Source of the DNA: Escherichia coli
Lineage (GTDB): Bacteria > Pseudomonadota > Gammaproteobacteria > Enterobacterales > Enterobacteriaceae
Reading direction: 5' to 3' (one strand)
Assembly: GCF_024298765.1 (NCBI RefSeq)
Contig: NZ_CP101210.1
DNA length: 64,000 nucleotides
Positions 1,206 through 31,540 of the stretch are shown piece by piece. Under the pieces are notes generated by a model. That model ran no database searches. It was given only the letters and a program-made list of their open reading frames with translations, and was not told the DNA's origin. The position numbers and the translations under genes are program-made. Each line of letters starts with the position of its first letter. The first letter of the stretch is position 1.

Positions 1206-1206
1206 A

Positions 1207-1283: not shown

Positions 1284-1285
1284 GT

Positions 1286-1361
<76 letters not shown>

Positions 1362-1364
1362 TAT

Positions 1365-1439
<75 letters not shown>

Positions 1440-2365: not shown

Positions 2366-2899
2366 ATGAACGCAAAAATCAGATACGGCCTGTCGGCTGC
2401 CGTTCTGGCACTGATTGCCGTCGGTGCGCCCGCGCCTGATATTCTCGACCAGTTTCTGGATGAAAAAGAAGGTAACCACACAACGGCATACCGCGATGGT
2501 TCCGGCATCTGGACCATCTGTCGGGGTGCCACGATGGTGGATGGAAAACCCGTTTTTCCCGGTATGAAACTGTCGAAGGAAAAATGCGACCAGGTCAACG
2601 CCATTGAGCGTGATAAGGCGCTGGCATGGGTGGAGCGCAATATTAAAGTACCACTGACCGAACCACAAAAAGCGGGTATCGCGTCATTTTGTCCCTATAA
2701 CATTGGCCCCGGTAAGTGTTTTCCATCGACGTTTTATAAGCGGCTGAATGCTGGTGATCGTAAGGGCGCATGCGAGGCGATTCGCTGGTGGATAAAAGAT
2801 GGTGGGCGCGATTGCCGCATACGTTCAAATAACTGCTATGGACAGGTTATTCGTCGTGACCAAGAAAGCGCATTAGCCTGTTGGGGAATAGATCAGTGA
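2366..2899 (+). CDS. SAR endolysin (T4-lysozyme-like muramidase with N-terminal signal-anchor-release domain)
   Basis: N-terminal hydrophobic Gly/Ala-rich segment [16 protein letters not shown]; catalytic E-x8-D-x5-T motif [16 protein letters not shown]. Confidence 0.9.
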
Positions 2900-3363
2900 G
2901 CAGAGTCGCCGCGATTATTTATGCTCTGGTTATCTGCATCATCGTCTGCCTGTCGTGGGCGGTCAATCATTACCGTGATAACGCCATCACCTACAAAGAA
3001 CAGCGTGATAAAAAAGTCAGTGAGCTGAAGCAGCTGACCGCCACCATCGCTGACATGCAGCAGCGTCAGCGTGATGTTGCTGCGCTCGATGCAAAGTACT
3101 CGAGAGAATTAGCCAATGCGAAAGCTGAAAATGAAACTCTGCGCGCTGATGTTGCCGCTGGTCGTAAGCGCCTGCGGGTCAATGCCAGTTGCTCCGCAGC
3201 CGTGCGTGAAGCCACCGGACCCACCAGCGTGGATAATGCAACCAGCCCCAGACTGGCAGACACCGCTGAACGGGATTATTTCACCCTCAGAGAACGGTTG
3301 ATGACGATGCAGAAGCAACTGGAAGGGGCACAGCTATACATTCGTGAGCAATGTCTCAGATAA
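2896..3363 (+). CDS. Spanin, inner-membrane subunit Rz (GTG start assumed)
   Basis: Strong similarity to lambda Rz as recalled; N-terminal TM helix then coiled coil. Confidence 0.85.
3116..3301 (+). CDS. Spanin, outer-membrane lipoprotein subunit Rz1 (embedded in Rz, +1 frame)
   Basis: Lipobox LVVSAC, proline-rich body, similar to lambda Rz1. Confidence 0.85.
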
Positions 3364-3518
3364 AAACCGGCCAAGGATAATCCGCTAAAGATTCGCCGGT
3401 GGCGAAAGAGAGCCAAGGTGTCAACCTACGCTATTACTTATGATAATGCAACAGACGAAGCGGGACATATTGGCGCATAACAAATCAGTGCAGGCTAACT
3501 GCAGGAAGAACTTAGGGC

Positions 3519-3785
3519 GTGAACGTAGAAAACCTAAGTAACGCACATTACATCTATAACGAGATGAAAGAGCTACAGCGACAGAAAGGTATACTGGAAA
3601 GTGGTGCAGGGCTTGGTGTGACAATCCAGTCTGCCTATCAATATAGTGCTTTTCTTGAGGCCATACGCCCGCATGCAGTTGCTGAACTTAACAGCCGTAT
3701 TGAGGAAAAGAAATCCGCGCTGGTTAATTTGGGTGCTTCCTTCTCTATATACGAGCATAATAAGGCGGGTTGGAAACCCGCCTAA
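3519..3785 (+). CDS. Hypothetical protein (88 aa from GTG; 73 aa from internal ATG)
   Basis: ORF only; weak RBS; convergent with downstream minus-strand gene. Confidence 0.35.
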   Translation: MNVENLSNAHYIYNEMKELQRQKGILESGAGLGVTIQSAYQYSAFLEAIRPHAVAELNSRIEEKKSALVNLGASFSIYEHNKAGWKPA

Positions 3786-3790
3786 AGCAC

Positions 3791-4330
3791 TTAGAAACTG
3801 CGTGGAGCTGTGGAAAGAATGGATGCCAGTTCTTCCTTCGATAAATCCCAGCTTCGATTTACAGCGTCAATTTTCTTAAACTCATCAAGCATTGCGTTAT
3901 AGAGATGTTCTGTACGTGAATGAGTATTGGCAATGGGCTGTTTCTGTTCGGGGAAGCGATCAATTTTCTGATATGCCTCAATGATACTGAAGTAATCGCA
4001 TTCATTATTACCGTCGAAACCTGGGAGCTGAATTGCCCCATCATGTATTTTTAGATGATGGTCACGGACTAATTCTTTTTGCTCGTCATCACTAAGTTTC
4101 CTGAAAGCATTGGAAAGTCCGCGATACATATTCAAGACAGCAGTAACAAAATCACGATCTTCTTTACTTGGTTCGTCAACATCCAAATGTGAATATTCGG
4201 CCTTGATAACCCAATCATTACCAGATGACACAGCATATTTAACAAGCTGTGGATCAATATCAGTTTCGATACCTAGGTGGATGGCAATGTCACATAACAA
4301 AATGGTATTGATTTTATCTTTAATATCCAT
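3791..4330 (-). CDS. Accessory (moron) protein, 179 aa, resembling YfbU/UPF0304 family; reverse strand at the lambda bor position
   Basis: Own RBS AGAGGG and promoter-like upstream region; motif pattern MY..L, GFD, C-terminal region reminiscent of YfbU (from memory, unverified). Confidence 0.5.
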   Translation of the reverse strand: MDIKDKINTILLCDIAIHLGIETDIDPQLVKYAVSSGNDWVIKAEYSHLDVDEPSKEDRDFVTAVLNMYRGLSNAFRKLSDDEQKELVRDHHLKIHDGAIQLPGFDGNNECDYFSIIEAYQKIDRFPEQKQPIANTHSRTEHLYNAMLDEFKKIDAVNRSWDLSKEELASILSTAPRSF

Positions 4331-4468
4331 GAGTTAACCCTCTGAAGTAAAAAGTAATATCTACACCCGTTGGCTCATGAAGTCTATTGATCTGTCTCAT
4401 ATCAGCAGCAAATCTATTCCATGGAGATACTCAATGCAGGTCACCTTTGATTTATATAAGGGCGAAAC

Positions 4469-4819
4469 ATGCCAGCACTAATCCCACGCGCCTGCCGTAA
4501 GCGTGGATGTGCAGGTACAACCACAGACAGTTCTGGTTACTGCGATAAACATCGTGGCGAAGGATGGGTACAGCATCAACGCGGACTGAGCCGCCACCAG
4601 CGTGGCTATGGCTCGAAATGGGATGCCATACGTGCGCGCATACTGAAGCGTGATAATCATCTGTGTCAGAACTGCCTGCGCAATGGGAGAGCCGTTGAAG
4701 CCAGAACTGTGGACCACATCATTCCGAAAGCTCATGGTGGCACGGATGCAGACAGTAACCTGCAGAGTCTGTGCTGGCCCTGTCATAAAGCAAAAACAGC
4801 GCGCGAACGCATCAATTGA
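4469..4819 (+). CDS. HNH endonuclease (terminase-associated)
   Basis: Cys-rich N-terminus and H-N-H signature DHIIPKAHGGTD...N...LCWPCH. Confidence 0.85.
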   Translation: MPALIPRACRKRGCAGTTTDSSGYCDKHRGEGWVQHQRGLSRHQRGYGSKWDAIRARILKRDNHLCQNCLRNGRAVEARTVDHIIPKAHGGTDADSNLQSLCWPCHKAKTARERIN

Positions 4820-4967
4820 TAACAGCTCCCATCTGCAGGGGAGGGGCGGGTCAAATCTCTGCAACCCTGGCTGTTCAGTACCGCCGCCTGACCCTTCCTC
4901 ACATCGCCGCAGGTTCGAAAACTTTTTTTTGGAAATGTGAACAAACGATTGATAGGTAAGACCGATT

Positions 4968-5450
4968 ATGTCAGGACCTCCGAAAACCCCGCCACGCCTG
5001 CATTTGATACGAGGCAACCCCTCAAAGCGCCCCGTTAAAGACCACAAAAAAACCGCTAAAAAGGATGAAAAAGGTCTTCCTAAAATTCCGCAGCATTTAG
5101 GGGCTCAGGGGAAGTACTGGTTCAGGCGAATGGCGGAAGAGCTGAATGCGGAAGGGATCATTTCTCAGCTTGATGCGCGTGCGCTCGAGTTGCTGGTGGA
5201 AGCCTACACCGAATATCGGCATCACTGCGAAACACTCGATGTTGAGGGGTATACCTACCGCACGGAAACGCAGAGCGGTGATGTACTGATTAAGGCGCAC
5301 CCCGCGGCGGCAATGAAAGCGGATGCCTGGAAGCGGATCCGGGCAATGCTTGCAGAGTTTGGTATGTCACCGGCAAGCCGGGCTAAAGTAAATATCGCCG
5401 GACCGGATGATGTTGATCCGCTGGCGGAGCTTTTAAAAGCGAGAGACTGA
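4968..5450 (+). CDS. Terminase small subunit (P27 family-like)
   Basis: Position upstream of and overlapping TerL start; typical basic N-terminus. Confidence 0.8.
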   Translation: MSGPPKTPPRLHLIRGNPSKRPVKDHKKTAKKDEKGLPKIPQHLGAQGKYWFRRMAEELNAEGIISQLDARALELLVEAYTEYRHHCETLDVEGYTYRTETQSGDVLIKAHPAAAMKADAWKRIRAMLAEFGMSPASRAKVNIAGPDDVDPLAELLKARD

Positions 5451-7207
5451 TGGCAAAAGTGGCTGACGGGATCCGCTACGCCGAACGTGTTGTTGCAGGA
5501 GAAATTGTTGCTGGCGAATTTGTCCGCCTGGCCTGCCAGCGTTTTCTTGATGATCTGAAGTACGGCGAAGAGCGGGGGATTTATTTCAGTGAACCCCGTG
5601 CGCAGCACATCCTGAATTTCTACAAATTTGTGCCTCATGTAAAAGGGGCGCTGGCAGGCCAGCCCATTGAGTTGATGGACTGGCATGTATTTATCCTCAT
5701 TAATATTTTTGGTTTTGTCATTCCGCTGGTCAATGAAGAGACCGGGGAAGTTGTCATGCGCAGCGATGGCAGCGGACGTCCGGTGATGGTGCGCCGGTTC
5801 CGGACGGCGTACAACGAAGTCGCCCGTAAAAACGCAAAATCAACTCTGTCATCGGGTATCGGCCTGTATATGACGGGGGCAGATGGTGAAGGCGGAGCTG
5901 AGGTGTATTCAGCCGCAACCACGCGTGACCAGGCCAGAATCGTGTTTGAAGACGCCAAAAATATGGTCAGAAAAGCCCGGTCGACACTCGGGCGGTTGTT
6001 TGATTTCAACAAGCTGGCGATTTACCAGGAGCAGAGCGCATCAAAATTTGAACCGCTTTCTTCGGATGCAAACAACCTAGATGGTCTGAACATCCACTGC
6101 GCCATTATTGATGAGCTGCATGCACATAAAACCCGTGACGTGTGGGACGTTCTGGAAACGGCAACCGGTGCCCGTCTGCAGTCCCTTTTATTTGGTATCA
6201 CCACGGCAGGGTTTAACAAGGAAGGGATTTGTTACGAGCAGCGTGATTACGCCATCAAGGTATTGCGTGGCTATAACAGCGACGTGGAGGGCGCGGTAAA
6301 AGACGACTCCTACTTTGCGATTATTTACACCCTCGATGAGGGAGATGATCCGTTTGATGAAACGGTCTGGCAGAAAGCGAATCCCGGCCTGGGCATCTGT
6401 AAACGCTGGGATGATCTGCGTCGCCTGGCGAAAAAAGCGAAAGAACAGGTCTCTGCGCGGGTGAATTTTTTTACCAAACACATGAATGTGTGGGTAACAG
6501 CAGAGTCTGCCTGGATGGACATGATTAAGTGGGAGAAGTGCGAATACATTGCCCCACGACATGAGCTGAAAACGTATCCCATGTGGGTCGGCGTTGACCT
6601 TGCTCATAAGATTGATATCTGTGCGGCGGCAAAACTCTGGCGAACGGATAACGGGCATGTTCATGCCGATTTTAAATTCTGGCTTCCGGAAGGACGGCTG
6701 GAACGATGCTCGCGGCAGCAGGCAGAACTTTACCGGAAGTGGGCGGAGATGGATAAGCTGATTCTGACGGATGGTGATGTTATCGATCATGCTCAGATAA
6801 AAAGTGACTTACTGGAATGGATTGGTGGTGAAAACCTCAGGGAACTGGGATTTGACCCGTGGAGCGCGATGCAGTTCAGCCTGGCACTGGCTGAAGAAGG
6901 GATACCGCTGGTGGAGGTTCCGCAGACGGTTCGCAATCTGTCAGAGGCCATGAAGGAAACGGAATCACTGGTCTATGCCGGGCGTTTCCATCACAGCAAT
7001 CATCCGGTCATGAACTGGATGATGTCTAACGTTACGGTAAAACCGGACAAAAACGACAATATCTTCCCGAATAAATCCACGCTGGAAGCCAAAATCGACG
7101 GCCCTGTTGCGATGTTTACAGCAATGAGCCGGATGCTGGTCAATGGTGGTGAACCGGAGCTGGATCTGTCTGAACATCTGGTCAGCGTGGGCATCCGCTC
7201 GCTTTAA
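5450..7207 (+). CDS. Terminase large subunit
   Basis: 585 aa, ATPase plus nuclease architecture, positional. Confidence 0.9.
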
Positions 7208-16906: not shown

Positions 16907-17240
16907 GCCTGAAGTTTTTAACTGGATCCCCCGTGAGGGGATGGAGACGACACGAAAGCCATCAGTTATTACGGTAAAGTTTGGTGACGGATATGAACAG
17001 CGACGGGCTGGTGGTCTGAATGCGGATCTGAAAACGTTTAAACCGGTATTTCGTGTCACAGATGAATATTCCCGTGCCGCGCTGGACAGTTTTTTATCCC
17101 GTCATGCCGGGATTCGTGCTTTTTTGTGGCGTCCGCCAAAACACAACAGGACTGTCCGGGTTGTCTGCAGGGAGTGGAGCATTTCGGATAATGCCATGTA
17201 TACCGATTTTAACTGTACCTTTGAAGAGGTCACTCACTGA
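16899..17240 (+). CDS. Minor tail protein M (GTG start overlapping tape-measure stop)
   Basis: Similarity to lambda M (KVRFGDGYxQR, GLNA.LKT motifs). Confidence 0.85.
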   Translation: MPEPEVFNWIPREGMETTRKPSVITVKFGDGYEQRRAGGLNADLKTFKPVFRVTDEYSRAALDSFLSRHAGIRAFLWRPPKHNRTVRVVCREWSISDNAMYTDFNCTFEEVTH

Positions 17241-17938
17241 TGCAGGATATACAGCAGGAAACACTCAATGAGTGCACTAAAACGGAGCAATCCGCGCTGG
17301 TCGTGCTCTGGGAAATTGATCTGACAGAGGTCGGCGGAGATCGTTATTTCTTCTGTAATGAGCAGAACGAAAAAGGTGAACCAGTCACCTGGCAGGGGCG
17401 GCAGTATCAGGCTTATCCCATTCAGGGAAGCGGATTTGAGATGAACGGCAAAGGAGCCAGTGCAAGGCCAACGCTTAAAGTCTCTAATCTGTACGGCATG
17501 GTCACCGGGATGGCGGAAGATCTGCAGAGTCTGGTCGGCGGAACGGTGGTCCGGCGTAAGGTTTACGCCCGTTTTCTGGATGCGGTGAACTTCGTCAACG
17601 GAAACAGTGACGCCGATCCGGAGCAGGAGGTGATCAGCCGCTGGCGCATCGAACAGTGCAGCGAACTGAGCGCGGTCAGTGCCTCTTTTGTGCTGTCCAC
17701 ACCGACGGAAACGGATGGCGCTGTTTTTCCGGGGCGCATCATGCTGGCCAACACCTGCACCTGGATCTACCGCGGCGATGAGTGCGGTTATGATGGCCCG
17801 GCGGTCGCGGATGAATATGACCAGCCAACGTCCGATATCACGAAGGATAAGTGCAGCAAATGCCTGAGTGGTTGCAAGTTCCGCAATAACGTCGGCAATT
17901 TTGGCGGCTACCTTTCCATTAACAAACTTTCGCAGTAA
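17240..17938 (+). CDS. Minor tail protein L
   Basis: Similarity to lambda L including C-terminal Cys cluster. Confidence 0.9.
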   Translation: MQDIQQETLNECTKTEQSALVVLWEIDLTEVGGDRYFFCNEQNEKGEPVTWQGRQYQAYPIQGSGFEMNGKGASARPTLKVSNLYGMVTGMAEDLQSLVGGTVVRRKVYARFLDAVNFVNGNSDADPEQEVISRWRIEQCSELSAVSASFVLSTPTETDGAVFPGRIMLANTCTWIYRGDECGYDGPAVADEYDQPTSDITKDKCSKCLSGCKFRNNVGNFGGYLSINKLSQ

Positions 17939-17942
17939 ACCC

Positions 17943-18686
17943 ATGACAGAGACAGAATCAGCGATTCTGGCGCACGCCCGGCGATGTGCGCCAGCGGAGT
18001 CGTGCGGCTTCGTGGTGAGAACGCCGGAGGGGGACAGATATTTTCCCTGCGTGAATATCTCCGGTGAGCCGGAGGCGTATTTCCGGATGTCGCCGGAGGA
18101 CTGGCTGCGGGCAGAGATGCAGGGTGAGATTGTGGCGCTGGTCCACAGCCACCCCGGTGGTCTGCCCTGGCTGAGTGAGGCCGACCGGCGGCTGCAGGTG
18201 CAGAGTGATTTGCCGTGGTGGCTGGTCTGCCGTGGGGAGATTCATAAATTCCGCTGTGTGCCGTATCTCACCGGGCGGCGCTTTGAGCACGGGGTGACGG
18301 ACTGTTACACGCTGTTCCGGGATGCTTACCATCTGGCGGGGATTGAGATGCCGGATTTTCATCGCGAGGATGACTGGTGGCGTCACGGTCAGAATCTCTA
18401 TCTGGATAATCTGGAGGCCACAGGGCTGTATCAGGTGCCGTTGTCAGCGGCGCAGCCGGGCGATGTGCTGCTGTGCTGTTTTGGTTCATCGGTGCCGAAT
18501 CATGCCGCCATTTACTGTGGTGACGGCGAGCTGCTGCACCATATTCCTGAACAACTGAGCAAACGAGAGAGGTATACCGACAAATGGCAGCGACGCACAC
18601 ACTCCCTCTGGCGTCACCGGGCATGGCACGCATCTGCCTTTACGGGGATTTACAACGATTTGTCCGCCGCATCGATCTGCGTGTGA
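17943..18686 (+). CDS. Tail assembly protein K (JAB/MPN plus NlpC/P60 domains)
   Basis: HSHP motif and Cys/His peptidase region; lambda K-like. Confidence 0.9.
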   Translation: MTETESAILAHARRCAPAESCGFVVRTPEGDRYFPCVNISGEPEAYFRMSPEDWLRAEMQGEIVALVHSHPGGLPWLSEADRRLQVQSDLPWWLVCRGEIHKFRCVPYLTGRRFEHGVTDCYTLFRDAYHLAGIEMPDFHREDDWWRHGQNLYLDNLEATGLYQVPLSAAQPGDVLLCCFGSSVPNHAAIYCGDGELLHHIPEQLSKRERYTDKWQRRTHSLWRHRAWHASAFTGIYNDLSAASICV

Positions 18687-19225
18687 AAACGGGGGCCGAA
18701 GCCATCCGGGCGCTGGCCATGCAGATCCCGGCGTTTCGTCAGAAGCTGAGCGACGGCTGGTATCAGGTACGCATTGCCGGGCGTGATACAGGTGAAACGG
18801 AATTATCAGCCCGTCTTAATGAACCGCTGGCAAATGGTGCTGTGATCCATATCGTGCCGCGTCTGGCAGGAGCCAAAAGTGGCGGTGTGTTTCAGGCTGT
18901 GCTGGGGGCGGCTGTTATGGCGGTTGCTATATGGATGCCGGGGGTAGGAATTATGGCGAGTAATCTGCTGTTTTCTCTCGGTGCCAGTATGACGCTTGGC
19001 GGTGTTGCACAGATGCTGGCCCCTAAACCCAAACCCCCCCGCACACAGACAACGGATAACGGCAAACAGAACACCTATTTTTCTTCACTGGATAATATGG
19101 TTGCCCAGGGCAATGTTCTGCCCGTTCTGTACGGTGAAATGCGCGTGGGGTCACGGGTGGTTTCTCAGGAGATCAGCACGGCAGACGAAGGGGATGGTGG
19201 TCAGGTTGTGGTGATTGGTCGCTGA
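18584..19225 (+). CDS. Tail assembly protein I
   Basis: N-terminus MAATHTLPLASPGMARICLYGD matches lambda I; overlaps K. Confidence 0.85.
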   Translation: MAATHTLPLASPGMARICLYGDLQRFVRRIDLRVKTGAEAIRALAMQIPAFRQKLSDGWYQVRIAGRDTGETELSARLNEPLANGAVIHIVPRLAGAKSGGVFQAVLGAAVMAVAIWMPGVGIMASNLLFSLGASMTLGGVAQMLAPKPKPPRTQTTDNGKQNTYFSSLDNMVAQGNVLPVLYGEMRVGSRVVSQEISTADEGDGGQVVVIGR

Positions 19226-19244
19226 TGCAAAACATTTTATGTGA

Positions 19245-19271
19245 AACCGCCTCCGGGCGGTTTTGTCGTTT
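19245..19271 (+). terminator. Hairpin plus T-rich tract between I and J
   Basis: CCGCC-TCCG-GGCGG then TTTTGTCGTTT. Confidence 0.45.
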
Positions 19272-19285
19272 ATGGAGCGTGATGA

Positions 19286-22200
19286 ATGGGTAAAGGCAGC
19301 AGTAAGGGGCATACCCCGCGCGAAGCGAAGGACAACCTGAAATCCACGCAGTTGCTGAGTGTGATTGATGCCATCAGTGAAGGGCCGATTGAAGGTCCGG
19401 TGGATGGATTAAAAAGCGTGCTGCTGAACAGTACGCCGGTGCTGGACAGTGAGGGGAATACCAACATCGTCGGTGTCACGGTGGTGTTCCGGGCTGGTGA
19501 GCAGGAGCAGACTCCGCCGGAGGGATTTGAATCCTCCGGCTCCGAGACGGTGCTGGGTACGGAAGTGAAATACGACACGCCGATCACCCGGACCATCACG
19601 TCGGCAAACATTGACCGACTGCGTTTTACCTTCGGCGTGCAGGCACTGGTGGAAACCACCTCAAAGGGGGACAGGAATCCGTCGGAAGTCCGCCTGCTGG
19701 TTCAGATACAGCGTAATGGTGGCTGGGTGACGGAAAAAGACATCACCATTAAGGGCAAAACCACCTCGCAGTATCTGGCCTCGGTGGTGGTGGATAACCT
19801 GCCGCCGCGCCCGTTTAATATCCGGATGCGCAGGATGACGCCGGACAGCACCACAGACCAGCTGCAGAACAAAACGCTCTGGTCGTCATACACCGAAATC
19901 ATCGATGTGAAACAGTGCTACCCGAACACGGCACTGGTCGGCGTACAGGTGGATTCGGAGCAGTTCGGCAGCCAGCAGGTGAGCCGTAATTATCATCTGC
20001 GCGGGCGTATTCTGCAGGTGCCGTCGAACTATAACCCGCAGACTCGGCAATACAGCGGTATCTGGGACGGAACGTTTAAACCGGCATACAGCAACAACCC
20101 GGCCTGGTGTCTGTGGGATATGCTGACCCATCCGCGCTACGGCATGGGAAAACGTCTTGGTGCGGCGGATGTGGATAAATGGGCGCTGTATGTCATCGGC
20201 CAGTACTGCGACCAGTCAGTGCCGGACGGCTTTGGCGGCACGGAGCCGCGCATCACCTGTAATGCGTACCTGACCACACAGCGCAAGGCGTGGGATGTGC
20301 TCAGTGATTTCTGCTCGGCGATGCGCTGTATGCCGGTATGGAACGGGCAGACGCTAACGTTCGTGCAGGACCGACCGTCGGATAAGGTGTGGACCTATAA
20401 CCGCAGTAATGTGGTGATGCCGGATGATGGTGCGCCGTTCCGCTACAGCTTCAGCGCCCTGAAGGACCGCCATAATGCCGTTGAGGTGAACTGGATTGAC
20501 CCGGATAACGGCTGGGAGACGGCGACAGAGCTTGTGGAGGACACGCAGGCCATTGCCCGTTACGGTCGTAACGTCACGAAGATGGATGCCTTTGGCTGTA
20601 CCAGCCGGGGGCAGGCGCACCGCGCCGGGCTGTGGCTGATTAAAACGGAACTGCTGGAGACGCAGACCGTGGATTTCAGCGTGGGTGCCGAAGGGCTTCG
20701 CCATGTGCCGGGTGATGTCATTGAAATCTGCGATGATGACTATGCGGGGATCAGCACCAGCGGGCGCGTGCTGGCTGTGAACAGCCAGACCCGGACGCTG
20801 ACGCTCGACCGTGAAATCACGCTGCCATCCTCCGGTACCACGCTGATAAGCCTGGTTGACGGAAGTGGCAATCCGGTCAGCGTGGAGGTCCAGTCCGTCA
20901 CCGACGGCGTGAAGGTAAAAGTGAGCCGTGTTCCTGACGGCGTTGCCGGATACAGCGTATGGGGGCTGAAGCTGCCGACGCTGCGCCAGCGCCTGTTCCG
21001 CTGCGTGAGTATCCGTGAGAACGATGACGGCACGTATGCCATCACCGCCGTGCAGCATGTACCGGAAAAAGAGGCCATCGTGGATAACGGGGCGCACTTT
21101 GACGGCGACCAGAGCGGCACGGTGAATGGTGTCACGCCGCCAGCGGTGCAGCACCTGACTGCCGAAGTCACCGCAGACAGCGGGGAATACCAGGTGCTGG
21201 CCCGCTGGGACACGCCGAAGGTGGTGAAGGGCGTGAGCTTCCTGCTCCGTCTGACCGTAACAGCGGATGACGGCAGTGAGCGGCTGGTCAGCACGGCCCG
21301 GACGACGGAAACCACATACCGCTTCACGCAACTGGCGCTGGGGAACTACAGGCTGACTGTCCGGGCTGTAAATGCGTGGGGACAGCAGGGCGAGCCGGCA
21401 TCGGTATCGTTCCGGATTGCCGCACCGGCAGCGCCGTCTCGGATTGAGCTGACACCGGGCTATTTTCAGATAACCGCCACGCCGCATCTTGCGGTTTATG
21501 ATCCGACGGTACAATTTGAGTTCTGGTTCTCGGAAACGCGGATTACCGATATCAGGCAGGTTGAAACCACAGCCCGCTACCTTGGCACGGGGCTGTACTG
21601 GATAGCCGCCAGTATCAATATCAAACCGGGCCATGATTATTACTTTTATATCCGCAGTGTGAACACCGTTGGCAAATCGGCATTCGTGGAGGCCGTCGGT
21701 CGGGCGAGCGATGATGCGGAAGGTTACCTGGATTTTTTCAAAGGCAAGATAACCGAATCCCATCTTGGTAAAGAGCTGCTGGAAAAAGTCGACCTGACGG
21801 AGGATAACGCCAGCAAACTGGAGCAGTTTTCGAAAGAGTGGAAGGATGCCAACGATAAATGGAATGCCATGTGGGCTGTCAAAATTGAGCAGACCAAAGA
21901 CGGCAAACATTATGTCGCGGGTATTGGCCTCAGTATGGAGGACACGGAGGAAGGCAAACTGAGCCAGTTTCTGGTTGCCGCTAACCGTATCGCGTTTATT
22001 GACCCGGCAAACGGGAATGAAACGCCGATGTTTGTGGCGCAGGGCAATCAGATATTCATGAACGACGTGTTCCTGAAACGCCTGACGGCCCCCACCATTA
22101 CCAGTGGTGGAAATCCACCGGCATTTTCCCTGACACCGGATGGGCGGCTGACGGCGAAAAATGCCGATATCAGCGGTAACGTGAATGCGAACTCCGGGAC

Positions 22201-22681
22201 GCTCAACAACGTCACGATTAACGAGAACTGTCGGGTTCTGGGAAAACTGTCCGCGAACCAGATTGAAGGCGATCTCGTTAAAACAGTGGGCAAAGCTTTC
22301 CCCCGGGACTCCCGTGCACCGGAACGGTGGCCATCAGGGACCATTACCGTCAGGGTTTATGACGATCAGCCGTTTGACCGGCAGATTGTTATTCCTGCGG
22401 TGGCATTCAGCGGCGCTAAACATGAGAGAGAGCATACTGATATTTACTCCTCATGCCGTCTGATAGTGCGGAAAAACGGTGCTGAAATTTATAACCGTAC
22501 CGCGCTGGATAATACGCTGATTTACAGTGGCGTTATTGATATGCCTGCCGGTCACGGTCACATGACGCTGGAGTTTTCGGTGTCAGCATGGCTGATAAAT
22601 GACTGGTATCCCACAGCAAGTATCAGCGATTTGCTGGTTGTGGTGATGAAGAAAGCCACCGCAGGCATCAGTATCAGCTGA
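19286..22681 (+). CDS. Tail tip host-specificity protein J
   Basis: 1131 aa; lambda J-like N-terminus. Confidence 0.9.
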
Positions 22682-22700
22682 ATTTTATAACCCATATACG

Positions 22701-22726
22701 GGCGCCAGAAATGGCGCCTTTTTTAT
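22701..22726 (+). terminator. Rho-independent terminator after J
   Basis: GGCGCC-AGAAAT-GGCGCC followed by TTTTTTAT. Confidence 0.6.
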
Positions 22727-22748
22727 TGCAGAAAAGCGAGAGGTAATT

Positions 22749-23348
22749 ATGCGTAAAGTTTGTGCAGCCATTTTGTCCGCAGCCATCTGTCTGTCCGTAT
22801 CCGGTGCGCCTGCATGGGCATCTGAACATCAGTCCACGCTGAGCGCGGGCTATCTTCATGCCTCGACGAACGTTCCCGGCAGCGATGATCTGAACGGGAT
22901 TAACGTGAAATACCGTTATGAGTTTACGGACACACTGGGGCTGGTGACGTCATTCAGCTATGCAGGAGACAAGAATCGCCAGCTTACCCGTTACAGCGAT
23001 ACCCGCTGGCATGAAGATTCCGTGCGTAACCGCTGGTTCAGCGTGATGGCGGGGCCGTCTGTGCGCGTGAATGAATGGTTCAGCGCGTATGCGATGGCGG
23101 GTATGGCTTACAGCCGTGTGTCGACTTTCTCCGGGGATTATCTCCGCGTAACTGACAACAAGGGGAAAACGCACGACGTGCTGACCGGAAGTGATGACGG
23201 TCGCCACAGCAACACGTCTCTGGCGTGGGGAGCTGGCGTGCAGTTTAACCCGACCGAATCCGTGGCCATTGATATTGCTTATGAAGGCTCCGGCAGTGGC
23301 GACTGGCGCACTGACGGTTTCATCGTGGGTGTCGGTTATAAGTTCTGA
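22749..23348 (+). CDS. lom: Lom outer-membrane protein (Ail/Lom family)
   Basis: Signal peptide and beta-barrel pattern; lambda Lom-like. Confidence 0.9.
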
Positions 23349-23375
23349 TTAGCCAGGTAACACAGTGTTATGACA

Positions 23376-23401
23376 GCCCGCCGGTTCAGGCGGGCTTTTT
23401 T
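23376..23401 (+). terminator. Rho-independent terminator after lom
   Basis: GCCCGCC-GGTTCA-GGCGGGC followed by T6. Confidence 0.65.
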
Positions 23402-23412
23402 GTGGGGTGAAT

Positions 23413-26400
23413 ATGGCAGTAAAGATTTCAGGTGTACTGAAAGACGGCACAGGAAAACCGGTACAGAACTGCACAATCCAGCTGAAAGCAAAACGTAACA
23501 GCACCACGGTGGTGGTGAACACGCTGGCCTCAGAAAATCCGGATGAAGCCGGGCGTTACAGCATGGACGTTGAGTACGGGCAGTACAGCGTTATTCTGTT
23601 GGTGGAGGGATTCCCGCCGTCACATGCCGGGACCATCACCGTGTATGAAGATTCCCGACCCGGTACGCTGAATGATTTTCTCGGTGCCATGACGGAGGAT
23701 GATGCCCGTCCTGAGGCACTGCGCCGTTTTGAACTGATGGTGGAAGAGGTGGCGCGTAACGCGTCCGCGGTGGCACAGAACACGGCAGCCGCGAAGAAGT
23801 CAGCCAGCGATGCCAGCACATCAGCCCGTGAGGCGGCAACCCATGCGACTGATGCTGCAGGCTCAGCACGCGCAGCCAGCACGTCAGCCGGACAGGCCGC
23901 GTCGTCGGCTCAGTCAGCATCTTCCAGCGCAGGAACGGCATCAACAAAGGCCAGTGAAGCATCGAAAAGTGCTGCTGCTGCAGAGTCCTCAAAAAGCGCG
24001 GCAGCTACCAGTGCCGCTGCGGCGAAAACGTCAGAAACGAATGCGGCAGCGTCACAACAATCAGCCGCCACTTCTGCATCCGCCGCGACCACGAAGGCGT
24101 CAGAAGCAGCCACCTCAGCCCGGGATGCGGCGGCCTCAAAAGAGGCAGCGAAATCATCAGAAACGAACGCATCATCAAGCGCCAGTAGTGCCGCTTCCTC
24201 GGCAACGGCGGCAGGCAATTCCGCGAAGGCGGCAAAGACGTCTGAGACAAACGCCAGGTCTTCTGAAACGGCAGCGGGACAGAGCGCCTCGGCTGCGGCA
24301 GGCTCAAAAACAGCGGCTGCGTCGTCTGCCAGTGCCGCGTCAACAAGTGCCGGGCAGGCCTCAGCCAGTGCCACCGCCGCCGGAAAATCGGCAGAAAGTG
24401 CCGCATCGTCTGCTTCAACAGCCACAACGAAGGCTGGCGAAGCCACTGAACAGGCCAGCGCAGCAGCGAGGTCTGCTTCCGCAGCGAAGACATCCGAGAC
24501 GAACGCGAAAGCGTCGGAAACCAGCGCAGAATCCTCAAAAACGGCTGCCGCATCGTCCGTCAGTTCGGCGGCGTCATCGGCATCATCGGCGTCTGCTTCA
24601 AAAGATGAGGCGACCAGACAAGCGTCCGCAGCGAAGGGCAGCGCCACGACAGCATCCACGAAGGCGACAGAGGCAGCTGGCAGTGCGACGGCGGCAGCAC
24701 AGAGCAAAAGTACGGCGGAATCCGCGGCAACGCGCGCCGAGACAGCGGCAAAACGGGCAGAGGATATTGCATCCGCCGTGGCGCTTGAGGATGCAAGTAC
24801 GACGAAAAAGGGGATAGTACAGCTCAGCAGTGCGACCAACAGTACGTCTGAAACGCTGGCGGCAACGCCAAAGGCAGTAAAATCAGCCTATGACAATGCA
24901 GAGAAACGTCTGCAGAAAGACCAGAACGGCGCTGATATACCCGATAAGGGACGCTTCCTGAACAACATTAACGCGGTCAGTAAAACAGACTTTGCTGATA
25001 AGCGTGGTATGCGTTATGTGCGGGTTAACGCTCCTGCAGGTGCAACATCTGGAAAATATTACCCTGTTGTTGTTATGCGTTCTGCTGGCTCAGTAAGCGA
25101 ACTGGCATCAAGGGTCATTATCACCACGGCAACGCGAACCGCAGGCGATCCGATGAATAACTGCGAGTTTAACGGATTTGTTATGCCTGGTGGCTGGACT
25201 GACAGGGGGCGTTATGCTTATGGCATGTTCTGGCAATATCAAAACAATGAACGAGCCATCCACTCAATAATGATGAGTAATAAGGGCGATGATTTGCGCT
25301 CTGTGTTCTATGTTGATGGCGCTGCTTTCCCTGTTTTTGCGTTTATTGAAGATGGCCTGTCAATATCCGCACCTGGTGCTGATCTCGTTGTTAATGATAC
25401 GACCTATAAGTTTGGGGCAACAAATCCAGCGACTGAATGTATCGCGGCGGACGTTATCCTTGATTTTAAGAGTGGGCGTGGTTTTTATGAGTCCCATTCG
25501 TTAATCGTTAACGATAACTTGTCGTGCAAAAAACTTTTTGCCACAGACGAAATTGTAGCGCGTGGTGGTAATCAGATTCGAATGATAGGTGGGGAGTATG
25601 GTGCATTATGGCGTAATGATGGCGCTAAAACTTACCTGCTGCTTACCAATCAAGGTGATGTTTATGGTGGCTGGAATACATTAAGACCGTTTGCTATTGA
25701 TAACGCAACCGGCGAACTGATTATTGGAACCAAACTGTCCGCAAGTCTGAACGGTAATGCATTAACAGCAACAAAGCTGCAAACGCCAAGACTGGTTTCT
25801 GGTGTTGAGTTTGATGGTTCCAAAGATATTACTTTAACCGCCGCGCATGTGGCTGCTTTTGCCAGAAGGGCAACGGATACATATGCCGATGCGGATGGTG
25901 GCGTTCCCTGGAATGCCGAATCAGGCGCTTACAATGTCACCCGCTCTGGCGACAGCTATATTCTGGTTAACTTCTATACCGGAGTCGGAAGTTGCCGGAC
26001 CCTGCAGATGAAGGCGCATTACAGAAATGGAGGTCTGTTCTACCGTTCCTCAAGAGATGGCTATGGTTTTGAGGAAGGCTGGGCAGAAGTTTATACCTCG
26101 AAAAATCTTCCACCAGAAAGCTACCCAGTTGGCGCACCAATCCCGTGGCCATCAGATACCGTTCCGTCTGGTTATGCCCTGATGCAGGGGCAGACTTTTG
26201 ACAAATCTGCATACCCGAAACTTGCAATCGCTTACCCATCTGGTGTGATCCCTGATCTGCGTGGATGGACAATTAAGGGCAAACCCGCCAGTGGTCGCGC
26301 TGTATTGTCTCAGGAACAGGACGGTATTAAATCGCATGCCCACAGTGCCAGTGCATCCAGTACGGATTTGGGTACGAAAACCACATCGTCGTTTGATTAC

Positions 26401-26814
26401 GGCACTAAATCCACGAATAACACTGGGGCGCATACCCATAGTGTTAGCGGGACTGCAAATAGTGCCGGTGCGCACCAACACAAGAGTTCCGGTGCGTTTG
26501 GTGGCCCGAACACGAGCATTTTTCCTAATGGTTATACTGCGATTTCAAATCCAAGCCCGTGGATTATGAGCACAACAAGCGGTAGTGGCCAGACTCGTAA
26601 TGCAGGGAAGACATCATCAGATGGTGCTCATACCCACTCGCTGTCCGGCACTGCTGCAAGCGCAGGCGCACATGCACATACTGTCGGTATTGGTGCTCAT
26701 ACGCACTCCGTTACGATTGGTTCACATGGACACACCATCACCGTTAACGCTGCTGGTAACGCGGAAAACACCGTCAAAAACATCGCATTTAACTATATTG
26801 TGAGGCTTGCATAA
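23413..26814 (+). CDS. stf: Side tail fibre protein Stf (about 1130 aa; expanded Ala/Ser/Thr repeat region; His-rich C-terminal fibre domain)
   Basis: N-terminus [26 protein letters not shown] and C-terminus GAHTHS...[11 protein letters not shown] match lambda Stf as recalled. Confidence 0.9.
23760..24800 (+). repeat. In-frame imperfect tandem repeats within stf (recurring AAKTSETNA...SS.SAA units)
   Basis: Repeat units visible in translation; generates long spurious ORFs in other frames. Confidence 0.6.
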
Positions 26815-27395
26815 TGGCATTCAGAATGAGTGAACAACCACGGACCATAAAAATTTATAATCTGCTGGTCGGAACTAATGAATTTATTGGTGAAGGTGAC
26901 GCATATATTCCGCCTCATACAGGTCTGCCAGCAAACAGTACCGATATTGCACCACCAGATATTCCTGCTGGCTTTGTGGCTGTTTTCAACAGTGATGAGG
27001 CATCGTGGCATCTCGTTGAAGACCATCGGGGTAAAACGGTTTATGACGTGGCTTCCGGCGACGCGTTATTTATTTCTGAACTCGGTCCGTTACCGGAAAA
27101 TGTTACCTGGTTGTCGCCGGGAGGGGAATATCAGAAGTGGAACGGCACAGCCTGGGTGAAAGATGCAGAAGCAGAAAAACTGTTCCGGATCCGGGAGGCG
27201 GAAGAAACAAAAAACAGCCTGATGCAGGTAGCCAGTGAGCATATTGCGCCGCTTCAGGATGCTGCAGATCTGGAAATTGCAACGGAGGAAGAAACCTCGT
27301 TGCTGGAAGCCTGGAAAAAGTATCGGGTGTTGCTGAACCGTGTTGATACATCAACTGCACCGGATATTGAATGGCCAGTAGCACCTATAGGGTAA
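26814..27395 (+). CDS. tfa: Tail fibre assembly protein Tfa
   Basis: Positional immediately after stf; size 193 aa. Confidence 0.85.
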
Positions 27396-28254
27396 ATTCG
27401 TAATGATTACCTAAATACGTTATTCTTTTGTTAAAAAAGTGATTTTGCTATAGGTAGGGAGTATGTTCTTGGATTAAGAATAAAAAATCGCCATGAAAGA
27501 GCTTCATGGCGAGTACATAAACGTACAAAATGTGATGAAAGTAGAGTGGCGTAAGCCACTATATTAAGATATGACAATAGCGAAGAAAAGTAAATAACAT
27601 TTCATGGACGTTTAATTGTTAATTATAAAAACTAGAGTGCCCGATATTGTTTATCTTGCTTTAAAATAATGTACTCAAACCAAATTTTTGAGCTAAAAGC
27701 TCAAATAATATAAATGCAATAATAATGTTTAATAAGACAATTAGCTTGCTTTGTATTTTCATTTCGGAATACTGTTAAGTAACTTTGATGACCCTAACAA
27801 TAGATCGGAATTTTCTTAGAGTCAATGGTCACTGTTTTTGCTTGCAAAGCAAATGTTTTGGTGGTTATAAGTTGTCTTAATATAGTCACGCATGCAACTT
27901 GTTCCATGCGGAGATTAAAGATTGGAATATAACGCGAAGATGGAATTAAATTACATTTGCAATAATCAATTTATTATTACTCAATAATTACCGATATTAT
28001 TATTGTAAATTAATCATTAGAGTGCAAAAAGAAATGTAACGGCAAAATAAGAGGACGATAGCTGAGAAAAAAGCGTGCTTTCCCAATCTGGGGCAAATCA
28101 CGTCTGAATGACACCTGAAAACAGGTGGTAGCCTCAAGAAGGCTTGGAATATTCTTCTTTAATGTTATGTAATTCATTGATTTTTCGTGTACGATTTTAA
28201 GACATTTATTCCAAGAAAAATTTTTAACTCTTTGATTTTTCGACTCTGTATCAT

Positions 28255-28316
28255 CGGTCTCGAAAACCGGAGTAGGGGCAACTCTACCGGGGGTTCAAAT
28301 CCCCCTCTCTCCGCCA
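28255..28316 (+). other. serU: Prophage attachment core: 3' 62 nt of tRNA-Ser(CGA) serU ending in CCA, no 5' half
   Basis: Sequence CGGTCTCGAAAACCGG...CCCCCTCTCTCCGCCA matches serU 3' portion as recalled; upstream sequence is not tRNA. Confidence 0.8.
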
Positions 28317-28862
28317 CTTTATCAATGACTTATCTCCTGACTTCCCGCCTTGCTTTTCCTAAACAGAACAATCGTAGAATATTCTTGAAGGGTTAGATCG
28401 TCACTGTTTTCTGTTCGATACTGTGACATTCAGCACTTGATTCGCTATGGAGCTGACAGGAAGGTTTCGAGCGAAAATCTACAGTTATTCAGTCGTTTTC
28501 TTATCGGTCACCATTATTCTTTTAGACATTGATCCTATGAAACTGCCGCAAAGTTGCTGGCGGGAACTGAAGTTGCGTAGAGAAGGGGTCAATAATTGAG
28601 TCAAAAAAGGAACGCGGCCGTCAGATTAAAGCCGCGGGACAAAGTCCATAATTTCCAAGAGTTGTTGAATTTCCCAGCTTTTTTGAAAGCCTTTGTATCA
28701 TACTAACAAGTAAAAAAGGTTTAAACACCAAAATTAACCTATATTTCTGGTTAGCTTTACCATGACAGATGACTTGCTCCTGGAAACATTTGTGCTGCCA
28801 GTCTGTATGGCTGAGTTGTGTATTTATTGTTCGCCTTTTTCGCATTTTTTTTTCTACAGACA

Positions 28863-28898
28863 TAATAAAAAAGACACGACTCAAGTATGAGCGTGTCT
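28863..28898 (-). terminator. Rho-independent terminator downstream of zinT
   Basis: AGACACG ... CGTGTCT hairpin followed by T-run on minus strand. Confidence 0.55.
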
Positions 28899-28986
28899 GA
28901 GTTTGTCTTACTTATTTGTCTTGGCAAATTATTGTTGTTACTACCAGGCACTGTTCTGTTAAATAACTGAAGTCAGCGCAAAAAAA

Positions 28987-29637
28987 TCAATGAGACATCA
29001 TCTCCTCGACCACTTCTTCGCTACTCAACTGATAGGGATAATACGTTGGCCAGTTTTCCATTTCATTCAATAAAGACTGTTGGGAATCATTACCCATAAA
29101 AATGTGAAAATGAGATGATTTTCGTGGTGCAATTATATGATCGCTAAATTGTATATATTTAGGGGCTTTGCTTTCAGGATCTTTACATTCGAATAAGTAA
29201 CGAACGCCTTTCTTGCCTGATTTATAGGTGAGTATTTTGTATCCATCGTAATCATATTTACAGGATGTTGTTTCATTATTTCTATGGAATTCGACAATGC
29301 CGTCCTCAATGCCAATCATCTCGATGTCTGTCACATAACCTTTGCGATAATAATCTTTAATTTCAGCAAATGTTTTGGTTTTATCTGCATCCGCTTTCTT
29401 CTGAAAGACGGGGTCAAGTTTGCCACTTTGCAGTAAAGGATAAACGGATTGCCAGACTCCATCCCAGTCACTGAGCGTTCGGTTTTGTACATTGGCATCA
29501 TCAAAAACACCATTAGCAGCTTTTTGTTCGACCTCTGTTAAGGGTTTGCCGTGTGAGTGATGACCATGCGAAAAGGCAGGAGCGCTAACAATAAAGACAC
29601 CTAAAGCAACAGCCAGTTTATGAAGACGAATCGCCAA
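28987..29637 (-). CDS. zinT: Zinc/cadmium-binding periplasmic protein ZinT
   Basis: Signal peptide plus HGHHSHG metal-binding motif; matches ZinT. Confidence 0.95.
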
Positions 29638-29826
29638 AACAGTTTCCTCCAGAGTTAATGTATATGATGTGTAATGTTATATTGTAACATATAACAAAAT
29701 GCAACAACTCTTAGGAGACAAGAGAATAGTTCTCTCAGGTGTGCTTATCTATCTTATTGAAATAAAATAAATTATGTCGATGATTTGAGGTTGATGACAA
29801 ACGAAACATAACTTGATGTGATCTGC

Positions 29827-29862
29827 GTAGGCCGGATAGGGCGCTCGCGCCGCATCCGGCAG
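29827..29862. repeat. REP (repetitive extragenic palindrome) element
   Basis: GTAGGCCGGATAGGGCGCTCGCGCCGCATCCGGCAG palindromic unit. Confidence 0.8.
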
Positions 29863-29893
29863 GGATAACGCGTACTTTGTCGGCAATATGAAG

Positions 29894-30529
29894 TTATACA
29901 GATAATTTGTTGTGAACCTGCTTGCGTAAACGGTTAAAAAGGGAAAGCAACTTCTTATACCGTAAGGCTAAAAGCAGTACCGCCAGCCCAGCGTAGATGA
30001 GTGGCTGCGGTGAAATAATCTTCACTGACCACAAATAATGTATTGGGGCCAGGATCGCGACAAGATAGACGAAGTTATGCAACTGTTGCCAGTGTTTACC
30101 GAGTTTTCGCTGCATCGCCTGGGTTGAAGTGAACGCTAACGCAAGCAAAATTACCCAGCTGATAATACCTAACGTTAAATAAGGCCGGGTAATTAACTCC
30201 TTACCTAATAACGCCAGATTATTCACGCCCAGCTCCAGCAATGCGTAACTGGTTAAATGCAGTGTCGCCCAGGCAAAGCACCATAAGCCTAACAGGCGGC
30301 GAGTGCGTATCAATAACGGCTGTTTTGCGTAGCGTGCCAGAGGTGTGATTAACAAGGTCGCCAGCAAAAATTTCAGTGCAGTGCGACCAGTAAAATGCTG
30401 AATATCTTTCACCGGATCGGCACCCAATCCACCGTGATTAATCGCCCAGACCAGCCAGAGAAACGGCAACAATCCGGCAAGATGCAGGCAAACTTTCAGC
30501 CATGTCACCTGTTTTGCTGTCAGACGCAT
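29894..30529 (-). CDS. msrQ: Methionine sulfoxide reductase haem-binding subunit MsrQ (YedZ)
   Basis: 211-aa polytopic membrane protein; matches YedZ. Confidence 0.9.

Positions 30530-31540
<1,011 letters not shown>

Follow-up and report, generated by a model that had tools for sequence, protein, structure and literature searches.

A one-phase Ala/Ser heptad tract in a lambda-type side tail fibre gene of Escherichia coli probably encodes the proximal coiled-coil shaft

The closest described counterpart of the locus reported here is the side tail fibre (Stf) of Ur-lambda, a trimeric fibre characterized by cryo-EM, cryo-ET and AlphaFold3, in which residues 1–91 form a collar domain, residues 92–101 a linker and residues 102–393 the 'proximal coiled-coil domain' (PMC12617516). 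Resolution was reached only for residues 1–94 and for about 120 residues at the start of the bundle, the remainder being an AlphaFold3 model fitted to tomograms, and the lambda side fibres are described as rod-shaped and extended, with a defined hinge (PMC12617516). Coiled-coil regions of tail fibre classes vary in length between relatives (PMC12143355), and residues 1–393 of lambda STF serve experimentally as an N-terminal adapter for chimeric fibres built with P2, K1F, K5, KL106 and phiV10 modules (PMC11338833; bioRxiv 10.1101/2025.02.28.640725).

The window analysed here is a 64,000-nucleotide stretch of E. coli DNA (contig NZ_CP101210.1) that carries a lambdoid tail module in the order J (19286–22681), lom (22749–23348), stf and tfa (26814–27395), identical to the order in lambda; the lom product matches Pfam Ail_Lom (E 1e-121). 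The true start of stf is the ATG at 23413, the start that PGAP also chose for the gene in strain CH4799, to which stf is 99.9% identical, and the Ur-lambda Stf in PDB 9e7m, used for comparison, begins MAVKISG. The ORF finder gives a GTG start at 23407, which falls within the ribosome-binding site GGGGTGA. Depending on the start, the product lies between lom and tfa as a protein of 1133–1135 residues, in keeping with the approximately 1130 residues given in an earlier note on this DNA. The gene and its parts are as follows.

23413..26814, + strand: stf, encoding a side tail fibre of 1133 aa with start ATG 23413
23413..23745, + strand: N-terminal collar/attachment domain and linker, aa 1–111 (Pfam phage_tail_N)
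23746..24795, + strand: heptad tract, aa 112–461, 50 uninterrupted heptads of the form x-A-x-x-S-A-x in one phase
24322..24636, + strand: 15 heptads (aa 304–408, 105 aa) without lambda counterpart by alignment, present in K-12 StfR too
24811..24885, + strand: post-tract conserved motif, a Phage_fiber_2-type unit (PF03406, precomputed for homologues)
24922..26112, + strand: central module, aa 504–900, unrelated to lambda aa 399–526
26113..26811, + strand: predicted C-terminal receptor-binding tip, aa 901–1133, T4 gp37 needle-like with HxH repeats
26814..27395, + strand: tfa, putative tail fibre assembly chaperone (Pfam Caudo_TAP, E 1.9e-43)

The N-terminal domain matches Pfam PF08400 (phage_tail_N; E 1.6e-71, residues 3–136) and residues 1–94 of PDB 9e7m (E 2e-51). 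The central module contains a T4 gp34-like trimerisation domain (Pfam Gp34_trimer at 665–764) together with Mu S-like segments, and has structural matches in PDB entries 5yvq, 8ju3, 4uxe and 5nxf. The tip aligns with PDB 2xgf (E 7.7e-83 over aa 902–1133) and with Pfam Collar, and blocks of it are 68–93% identical to lambda residues 527–774; its dependence on Tfa, encoded directly 3' of stf, is predicted by family membership. With its predicted collar domain, gene order, Ala/Ser shaft and gp37-like tip, the protein is by sequence a member of the lambda Stf/StfR side tail fibre family.

Global alignment to a reconstructed 774-aa Ur-lambda Stf shows the two proteins to be alike in their J-lom-stf-tfa position, collar domain, homologous heptad tract, post-tract motif, gp37-like tip and Tfa, with identities of 86% over aa 1–303 and 76% over aa 409–503; the conservation of both ends claimed by the earlier note is borne out. 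The tract corresponds by this alignment to the published proximal coiled-coil domain of lambda-type side fibres, and is as such already known and ordinary. The two proteins differ in the variable loops of the tip, in the 15 additional heptads at aa 304–408 and in the central module, where the 397 residues with the gp34-like trimerisation domain replace 128 unrelated residues in lambda (aa 399–526). Between the same anchors the spacing is 358 aa here and 253 aa in lambda, or 51 vs 36 heptads, and in terms of the long form the lambda junction heptad AAAGSAS can be written as AAA|SSAS joined to AAK|GSAT. The earlier note had assigned the extra length to the repeat array, and this does not hold: of the 359 residues by which Stf exceeds lambda Stf, only 105, exactly 15 heptads (29%), lie in the tract, and 269 come from the central module.

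The Ala/Ser/Thr-rich, imperfect in-frame repeat that the note placed at 23760–24800 is real and extends over 23746–24795. A position-specific heptad scan finds a single tract in one phase (aa 112–461) and no second tract within the window. Ala occupies heptad position 2 in 47/51 units, Ser position 5 in 38/51 and Ala position 6 in 34/51, and A+S+T make up 73% of the residues. Bulky hydrophobics amount to 1 Leu, 1 Ile, 4 Val and 0 Met, and aa 112–461 contain no Pro, Cys or aromatic residue. Protein autocorrelation gives z = 8–10 at lags 7, 14 … 56, and DNA autocorrelation, measured against codon shuffles, gives z = 2.5–6.6 at lags 21, 42 … 126. No convincing period above the heptad emerged when heptad-lag identity was compared with heptad-order shuffles, the best signals being lag 11 (z 2.8) and lag 22 (z 1.7). 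Heptad periodicity and an extended helical rod are features shared with canonical trimeric coiled-coil shafts such as that of T4 fibritin, whereas the canonical Leu/Ile/Val a/d core is absent from the tract, which instead has the conserved stripe Ala 2, Ser 5, Ala 6, 0 stutters in 50 heptads and unusually low complexity. The core of the tract is a small-residue variant of the coiled-coil core.

We consider it highly probable (roughly 90%) that this tract codes for the proximal part of the shaft in a lambda-type side tail fibre, an alpha-helical coiled coil that is a conserved structural rod and not a hypervariable repeat. The observations behind this reading are the 50-heptad phase, the homology to the lambda domain, a helical prediction, purifying selection, and the preservation of heptad register at junctions and indels. 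An AF2 monomer model is helical over aa 99–306 and 319–462 (mean pLDDT 68), and the break at aa 307–318 is probably a fold-back artefact of modelling a single chain. The tract is under purifying selection, with dN/dS of 0.10–0.16 against close alleles, similar to the N-domain.

By analogy with the Ur-lambda literature, from which the trimeric state and the rod/hinge architecture of the present allele are carried over, three Stf chains would each contribute one continuous alpha-helix of ∼350 residues. Because the Ala/Ser core differs from the canonical hydrophobic a/d core, the packing geometry is one we infer, namely a parallel trimeric coiled coil with Ala 2, Ser 5 and Ala 6 as the inward stripe. 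At 0.148 nm per residue such a rod would measure ∼52 nm, whereas the 245 residues of the tract in lambda give ∼36 nm. At one end it would join the collar domain, by which the fibre is clamped to the tail tip, and at the other it would lead to the hinge, distal module and gp37-like tip. Its role would be mechanical, setting the stiffness and reach of the fibre, with reach expected to change with length, and the rod could act as a universal adapter for different distal modules.

The tract is far from unique to this allele. K-12 Rac StfR (1120 aa) also has 51 heptads between the anchors, is 96.5% identical in DNA over 23650–24950, and remains similar in ungapped alignment up to about aa 1007; against StfR and the E. 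coli 'prophage tail fiber N-terminal domain-containing protein' family, the tract differs by point substitutions only, and the receptor-binding loops differ from ∼aa 1005. The 51-heptad form is found at ≥80% coverage in 3585/5426 complete E. coli genomes; prophage stf alleles number 2 per E. coli genome at the median and up to 13. The whole gene recurs at 97–98% identity in phages mEp332, ev099, PhiR34_1 and Kati, and strain CH4799 is 99.9% identical across the tract region; with genes 97–99.9% identical to it known from numerous phage and E. coli genome sequences, the discovery value of the locus is little. Of modest practical value is that the StfR-type 51-heptad shaft is the common E. coli form and the 36-heptad shaft of lambda a minority. 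The word 'expanded' in the earlier note is therefore right in that the tract is longer than that of lambda, but its polarity is probably wrong, as the long form is that of StfR and most E. coli.

We next weigh a rival reading: recent expansion of a tandem repeat that is prone to recombination, with a copy number that would shift readily by slippage or unequal crossing-over and so vary fibre length within and between phage populations. Allele length does vary: anchor-to-anchor lengths among homologues are 358, 344, 330, 253, 246 and 138 aa, plus variants of ±3 aa, and heptad numbers are 51, 49, 47, 36, 35 and others. It varies rarely, however, since the 358-aa spacing is kept in 99/103 top protein matches and in 43/51 IMG/VR loci that have both anchors, and of 12,909 matches in E. 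coli genomes the best 60 (≥99.7% identity) have one and the same length, 1301 nt in a single piece. The motif AAK(T/S)SETNA, whose recurrence the note had correctly seen, occurs four times in the tract, and these copies, together with the one DNA-level tandem repeat, are located as follows.

24019..24045, + strand: AAKTSETNA copy 1
24145..24171, + strand: AAKSSETNA copy 2, left-hand junction of a natural deletion of 16 heptads (homologue L074)
24229..24255, + strand: AAKTSETNA copy 3, main mosaic junction inside the tract
24481..24507, + strand: AAKTSETNA copy 4, right junction of the L074 deletion
24569..24590, + strand: 9-nt micro-repeat CGGCATCAT, 2.4 copies, encoding AASSASSAS (TRF), the sole DNA tandem repeat of the tract

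In favour of a recombination-prone repeat, the L074 deletion (−112 aa) joins two AAK(S/T)SETNA copies in register, two further deletions (P0096 and L030) have short repeated peptides on their flanks, the micro-repeat coincides with the site of natural −3 aa variants (P0009 and P0080, which lack aa 387–389), and there is the weak extra similarity at the 11-heptad lag. Against it, TRF at a minimum score of 30 reports no array in the tract and only the micro-repeat, and the motif copies have diverged at synonymous sites. Heptad-to-heptad DNA identity is 41–46%, and the longest exact repeat in the tract DNA is 12 nt, the length expected from codon shuffles (12.1 ± 1.3) and below what homologous recombination normally needs. 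Thus, neither an array, nor long exact repeats, nor copy-number change among the 60 best genome matches was found, and the tract is not a DNA tandem-repeat or variable-number repeat locus. With dN/dS of ∼0.1 and with less than a third of the length gain over lambda residing in the tract, we regard recent, ready expansion as improbable. The proposal that the repeats drive length variation by recombination accordingly survives in part: homologues do differ in length, one deletion does join motif copies and a 21-nt periodicity is detectable, but the DNA repeats are short and the 60 closest relatives uniform. Two related candidates were set aside. A recent duplication as the source of the 15 extra heptads, suggested by the recurrence of AASTSAG and AAKTSET 154 aa apart, gains at most z 2.8 in the heptad-lag test. 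As to codon choice that avoids DNA repeats, codon redraws of the same protein give a longest repeat of 13.3 ± 2.0 nt, with 85% reaching ≥12 nt; the 12 nt observed are no shorter than this expectation, and the redraws speak neither for nor against selection on DNA repeats.

Coiled coils tolerate indels of 0 or ±3 mod 7. The 7 distinct indel events among the homologues, a small sample, are of −14, −28, −105 and −112 aa (0 mod 7) and of −3, +3 and −220 aa (±3 mod 7), and we know of no earlier quantification of such a rule in fibre evolution. Register is also kept where alleles are mosaic. Just past AAKTSETNA copy 3, 18 IMG/VR loci diverge from the query with the heptad register kept, and megablast matches stop at ∼24250 in both sets, namely at query nt 842 for phages and, with the query based at 23650, at nt 605 for E. 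coli genomes. All examined allele types except L075 hold one heptad phase up to their differing distal junctions, the commonest of which is the post-tract motif at 24811..24885. Some alleles carry this post-tract unit twice (+44 aa), which accounts for E. coli variants of +132 nt that were tried as tract expansions; their increment is not divisible by 7 and lies outside the heptads. No Chi site is present in J-lom-stf-tfa, and Chi was rejected as an explanation of the junctions.

The same tract is found in other fibre contexts. The P1 S-type fibre of phage Cyrano has 41 largely identical heptads followed by a similar post-tract motif, and differs in its P1 S-type N-terminus, its virion type and a tract that is shorter at the N-terminal end; Mu S structures match Stf aa 441–521 and 813–907. 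A cross-species peptide-pattern scan of genome contigs returned 8 loci only, its exact-peptide patterns being too specific. P1 S, Mu S and P2 H fibres are said, in work by Haggard-Ljungquist and by Sandmeier in 1992, to share segments with lambda Stf through horizontal module exchange. We tentatively suggest, as a possibility that we would not favour over its negation, that the small-residue heptad rod also serves as a scaffold for recombination that keeps the register. AAK(T/S)SETNA-like motifs would then act as in-phase crossovers between the stf alleles of prophages resident in one genome, exchange of distal modules and of rod length would proceed without a break of phase, and the synonymous divergence of the copies would guard a single gene against self-recombination. 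If this were so, the restriction of indels to 0 or ±3 mod 7 would count as a selectable signature in the evolution of fibres. For the engineering of chimeric Stf on the lambda 1–393 adapter, it is a useful guide that length changes found in nature, like the junctions between modules, keep the heptad register.

A flexible tether, in which the tract would be an intrinsically disordered, low-complexity Ala/Ser/Thr linker, would fit the 73% A+S+T, the near absence of bulky hydrophobics, the failure to find a Pfam family covering the tract and the moderate AF2 confidence. It is very unlikely given the strict heptad phase over 350 residues that lack proline, the helix predicted throughout, the strong purifying selection on the exact sequence, the quantised indels and the extended, hinged rods of lambda side fibres (PMC12617516).

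The 300-codon ORFs in other frames that the earlier note called spurious were likewise judged so here.

23810..24817, + strand: 335-codon shadow ORF (+1 frame), considered spurious
23910..24839, − strand: 309-codon antisense shadow ORF, counterpart of lambda 'orf206b', judged spurious
24005..24553, − strand: 182-aa shadow ORF

That one of these, especially the antisense 309-codon frame, is a real overlapping gene constraining the tract, as the annotation of orf206b antisense to the same region in the lambda record might suggest, is hardly credible, because PGAP annotates nothing there, the + ORF varies mostly at its own codon position 2 and the openness of the antisense frame has a compositional explanation. 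Among 50 distinct homologous tracts, variable sites at stf codon positions 1/2/3 number 66/58/217, a third-position excess that also speaks for selection on stf; the third stf position is the second of the 335-codon ORF. The antisense ORF shares its wobble positions with stf and so lies beyond the reach of this codon-position test; a stop-codon census was used instead, in which 34/52 homologues show 2 or 3 stops of this frame inside the tract, compared with 1 here. Read antisense, GCN, TCN and ACN become Ala, Asp/Glu and Val codons, and a stop arises only from Tyr, or from Gln/His where the preceding codon ends in T; the frame is open because the tract lacks Tyr and has few Gln/His codons. Annotators should accordingly treat 300-codon ORFs in the other frames of such tracts, lambda orf206b among them, with caution, as compositional shadows.

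The window, from an Escherichia coli chromosome, includes the late gene region of a lambdoid prophage, where the side tail fibre gene stf stands in the order J-lom-stf-tfa:

19286-22681, J
22749-23348, lom, between J and stf
from ATG 23413, stf
26814-27395, tfa, after stf and followed by chromosomal zinT and msrQP

An ORF finder begins stf at GTG 23407 (1135 aa). Because ATG 23413 is preceded by GGGGTGA and the lom terminator, is where PGAP places the start of a gene 99.9% identical to this one, and corresponds to the start of the solved Ur-lambda protein, we take the product to be 1133 aa and number its residues from this Met. Laid out in sevens, the protein runs through 50 consecutive heptads without a register shift, from EVARNAS (aa 112, nt 23746) to aa 461 (nt 24795), in agreement with the 23760-24800 proposed in the earlier note. 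Of the 51 rows, 47 have Ala at heptad position 2, 38 have Ser at position 5 and 34 have Ala at position 6. The tract is 73% Ala, Ser and Thr, and is devoid of Pro, Cys, Phe, Trp, Tyr and Met. At all lags of 7n residues up to 56, protein self-identity is 0.39-0.44 where shuffled sequences give 0.22 (z 8-10); it does not exceed expectation at other lags, and DNA self-identity is raised at lags of 21n nt (z 2.5-6.6 versus codon shuffles). In a position-specific scan that took in the whole window in six frames, this tract was the only match. The array is thus a real and statistically solid feature, and its description as imperfect in-frame repeats was apt.

The tract is homologous to lambda Stf 112-356 plus 15 heptads that lambda lacks, and therefore corresponds to the proximal coiled coil of the lambda fibre. 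In Ur-lambda, which carries four side fibres, each a trimer, gpStf comprises a collar domain (1-91), a linker (92-101), the proximal coiled-coil domain (102-393), a hinge (394-422) and a distal domain (423-525) followed by the receptor-binding domain (PMC12617516). We consider it highly probable (about 0.9) that the feature is the already known proximal coiled-coil shaft of lambda/StfR-type side tail fibres, in its common long form. Modelled by AlphaFold2 as a monomer, aa 95-520 come out helical at aa 99-306 and 319-462, and the lone low-confidence break looks like the monomer folded back on itself. At 0.148 nm per residue, the 350 residues would form a rod of about 52 nm, versus about 36 nm for the 245 residues of lambda. 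The inward stripe is Ala/Ser/Ala, not Leu/Ile/Val, from which we infer that the trimer packs as a small-residue variant of the coiled coil.

The tract had been held to explain the extra length of this Stf, an account that is only about 29% true (105 of 359 residues). For comparison, Ur-lambda Stf (774 aa) was reconstructed from the J02459 frames orf-401 and orf-314 and aligned globally with the window protein.

Global alignment of the window Stf (query) with Ur-lambda Stf
Query aa 1-303; lambda aa 1-303; 86% identity
Query aa 304-408; no lambda counterpart; 105 aa, exactly 15 heptads
Query aa 409-503; lambda aa 304-398; 76% identity
Query aa 504-900 (397 aa); lambda aa 399-526 (128 aa); replaced, no real similarity
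Query aa 901-1133; lambda aa 527-774; homologous, query 15 aa shorter

To the net 359 extra residues the tract thus contributes +105, the central module +269 and the tip -15. A T4 gp34-type trimerisation domain and Mu S-like segments lie in the central module, and the C-terminal tip is a homologue of the T4 gp37 needle (2xgf, E 8e-83). Short direct repeats at 26424-26708 (+) encode GAHTHS/GAHAHT-type His-x-His motifs of the tip that match the needle domain of T4 gp37, which is metal-binding. The tip ceases to resemble other alleles near aa 1005, the expected place of receptor-binding loops.

Of 5426 complete E. coli genomes, 4747 contain a match to the segment 23650-24950, 3585 of them with at least 80% coverage; copies per genome have a median of 2 and a maximum of 13. 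StfR of the K-12 Rac prophage has the same 51-heptad spacing as the query, and the whole stf of phages mEp332, ev099, PhiR34_1 and Kati is 97-98% identical to it; thus the long form is common and the lambda form the exception. In phage Cyrano (L094, 108 kb), positions 2466-6491 encode a 1341-aa fibre whose N-terminus is of the P1 S type and which contains 41 heptads of this Ala/Ser tract and a post-tract motif like the one here; the rod is therefore common to fibres with different attachment domains. The lambda junction heptad AAAGSAS can be read as AAA(SSAS) fused to (AAK)GSAT of the long form. From this junction and the long sequence on the Cyrano fibre we consider it more likely that the lambda lineage lost 15 heptads than that the query gained them, with the polarity unproven.

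In its DNA the tract does not qualify as an ordinary tandem repeat. The only repeat that Tandem Repeats Finder reported within it is one of 9 nt and 2.4 copies at 24569-24590, the longest exact repeat (12 nt) equals that of codon-shuffled controls, and the four copies of AAK(T/S)SETNA have diverged at the majority of their synonymous sites. Direct-repeat families in the tract are 60-85% identical, with spacings mostly multiples of 21, and no convincing period above the heptad was found in it. Variable sites in a set of 50 distinct, ungapped homologues of the tract number 66/58/217 at stf codon positions 1/2/3. Comparison with close alleles gives a dN/dS of 0.10-0.16 and comparison with lambda 0.26, close to that of the folded N-domain; exact sequence, not composition alone, is conserved.

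Tract length, measured between the anchors MVEEVARNA and the post-tract motif (24811..24885), varies rarely and in quanta. Both anchors were present in 103 of the best 120 protein matches (358 aa in 99, 355 in two, 361 and 330 in one each) and in 51 of 80 IMG/VR loci (358 aa in 43, 253 in five, 344, 246 and 138 in one each); the other 29 have different distal junctions. Deletions of 14, 28, 105 and 112 aa are multiples of 7, the last bounded exactly by AAKSSETNA and the fourth AAKTSETNA. The -3 aa variant sits in the 9-nt micro-repeat, the +3 aa variant is a duplicated AAG, and one large deletion (-220 aa) is -3 modulo 7. Four of seven events are thus 0 modulo 7 (binomial probability of at least four about 0.01 by our own arithmetic, for a small sample of n = 7) and three are ±3, kinds of change that a coiled coil can absorb as a stutter or stammer. 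No indel occurs in the best 60 E. coli matches listed (at least 99.7% identity), a listing that favours ungapped matches. The suggestion that recombination at the repeats drives fibre-length variation survives only in a weak form, that of rare in-register events and one slippage-prone 9-nt repeat; its strong form is contradicted by the lack of a DNA repeat substrate, the stable length among close relatives and strong purifying selection. In E. coli ECO20 and R10 (L082 and L083), a 44-aa unit directly after the heptads, including (S/T)LAATPKAVK, is tandemly duplicated (stf aa ~462-550, +132 nt), a true difference in unit number, yet outside the tract.

Ungapped likeness to the query ends at about aa 112 in 3 loci, just past the third AAKTSETNA (~aa 281) in 18, at aa 304 (lambda type) in 3, just past the post-tract motif (~aa 480-495) in 31, at aa 505-517 in 6 and in the tip (aa 1005-1009) in 12. 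Alleles that diverge within the tract go on with other heptads in unchanged phase (for example NADNSAQ AAADSQT ..., ending KAKEYLD or DALNYRN); the tract therefore acts as a conserved handle with register-keeping exchange points. Such a handle fits the engineering use of lambda STF 1-393, the standard N-terminal adapter of chimeric fibres (PMC11338833; bioRxiv 10.1101/2025.02.28.640725).

Two long ORFs overlapping the tract are best regarded as spurious, as the earlier note had judged. In the 335-codon plus-strand ORF most natural variation falls at its own codon position 2. The 309-codon antisense ORF, the counterpart of lambda's annotated orf206b, shares its wobble positions with stf and therefore escapes the codon-position test; in 34 of 52 homologues its frame is interrupted by 2 or 3 stops inside the tract, versus 1 in the query, and the frame owes its openness to the codon composition of the tract. 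Another long shadow ORF of the tail region (518 codons) lies antisense inside J at 20354-21910 (-).

The Chi sequence GCTGGTGG occurs 20 times in the whole window versus 2.2 expected, with 9 copies in the prophage head and tail genes; the scan found none in J-lom-stf-tfa, which falls in a Chi-free gap at 17015-31018. To our knowledge, lambda itself has no Chi. A full-length match to Rfam IS009 (RF02111; 27157-27355 (+), 226 bits versus a gathering score of 117) falls completely inside the tfa coding sequence, in its 3' half; the 'sRNA' family thus seems to have been modelled on part of a tail-fibre-assembly gene. Four tRNA genes (Met-CAT, Lys-TTT, Thr-TGT and Gly-TCC) stand back to back at 1130-1439 (+), upstream of the lysis and terminase genes of the prophage, and form a quartet that differs from the ileZ-argN-argO set of Stx phages. 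A fragment at 28262-28313 (-) resembles a tRNA 3' end, to judge from weak matches to Rfam and an artefactual ORF that reads ERGGFEPP, and is probably a remnant of the prophage attachment site. The unannotated 1.6-kb stretch from tfa to zinT (27395-28987) that contains it falls about 770 nt short of the corresponding gap in strain CH4799, in which yodB lies.
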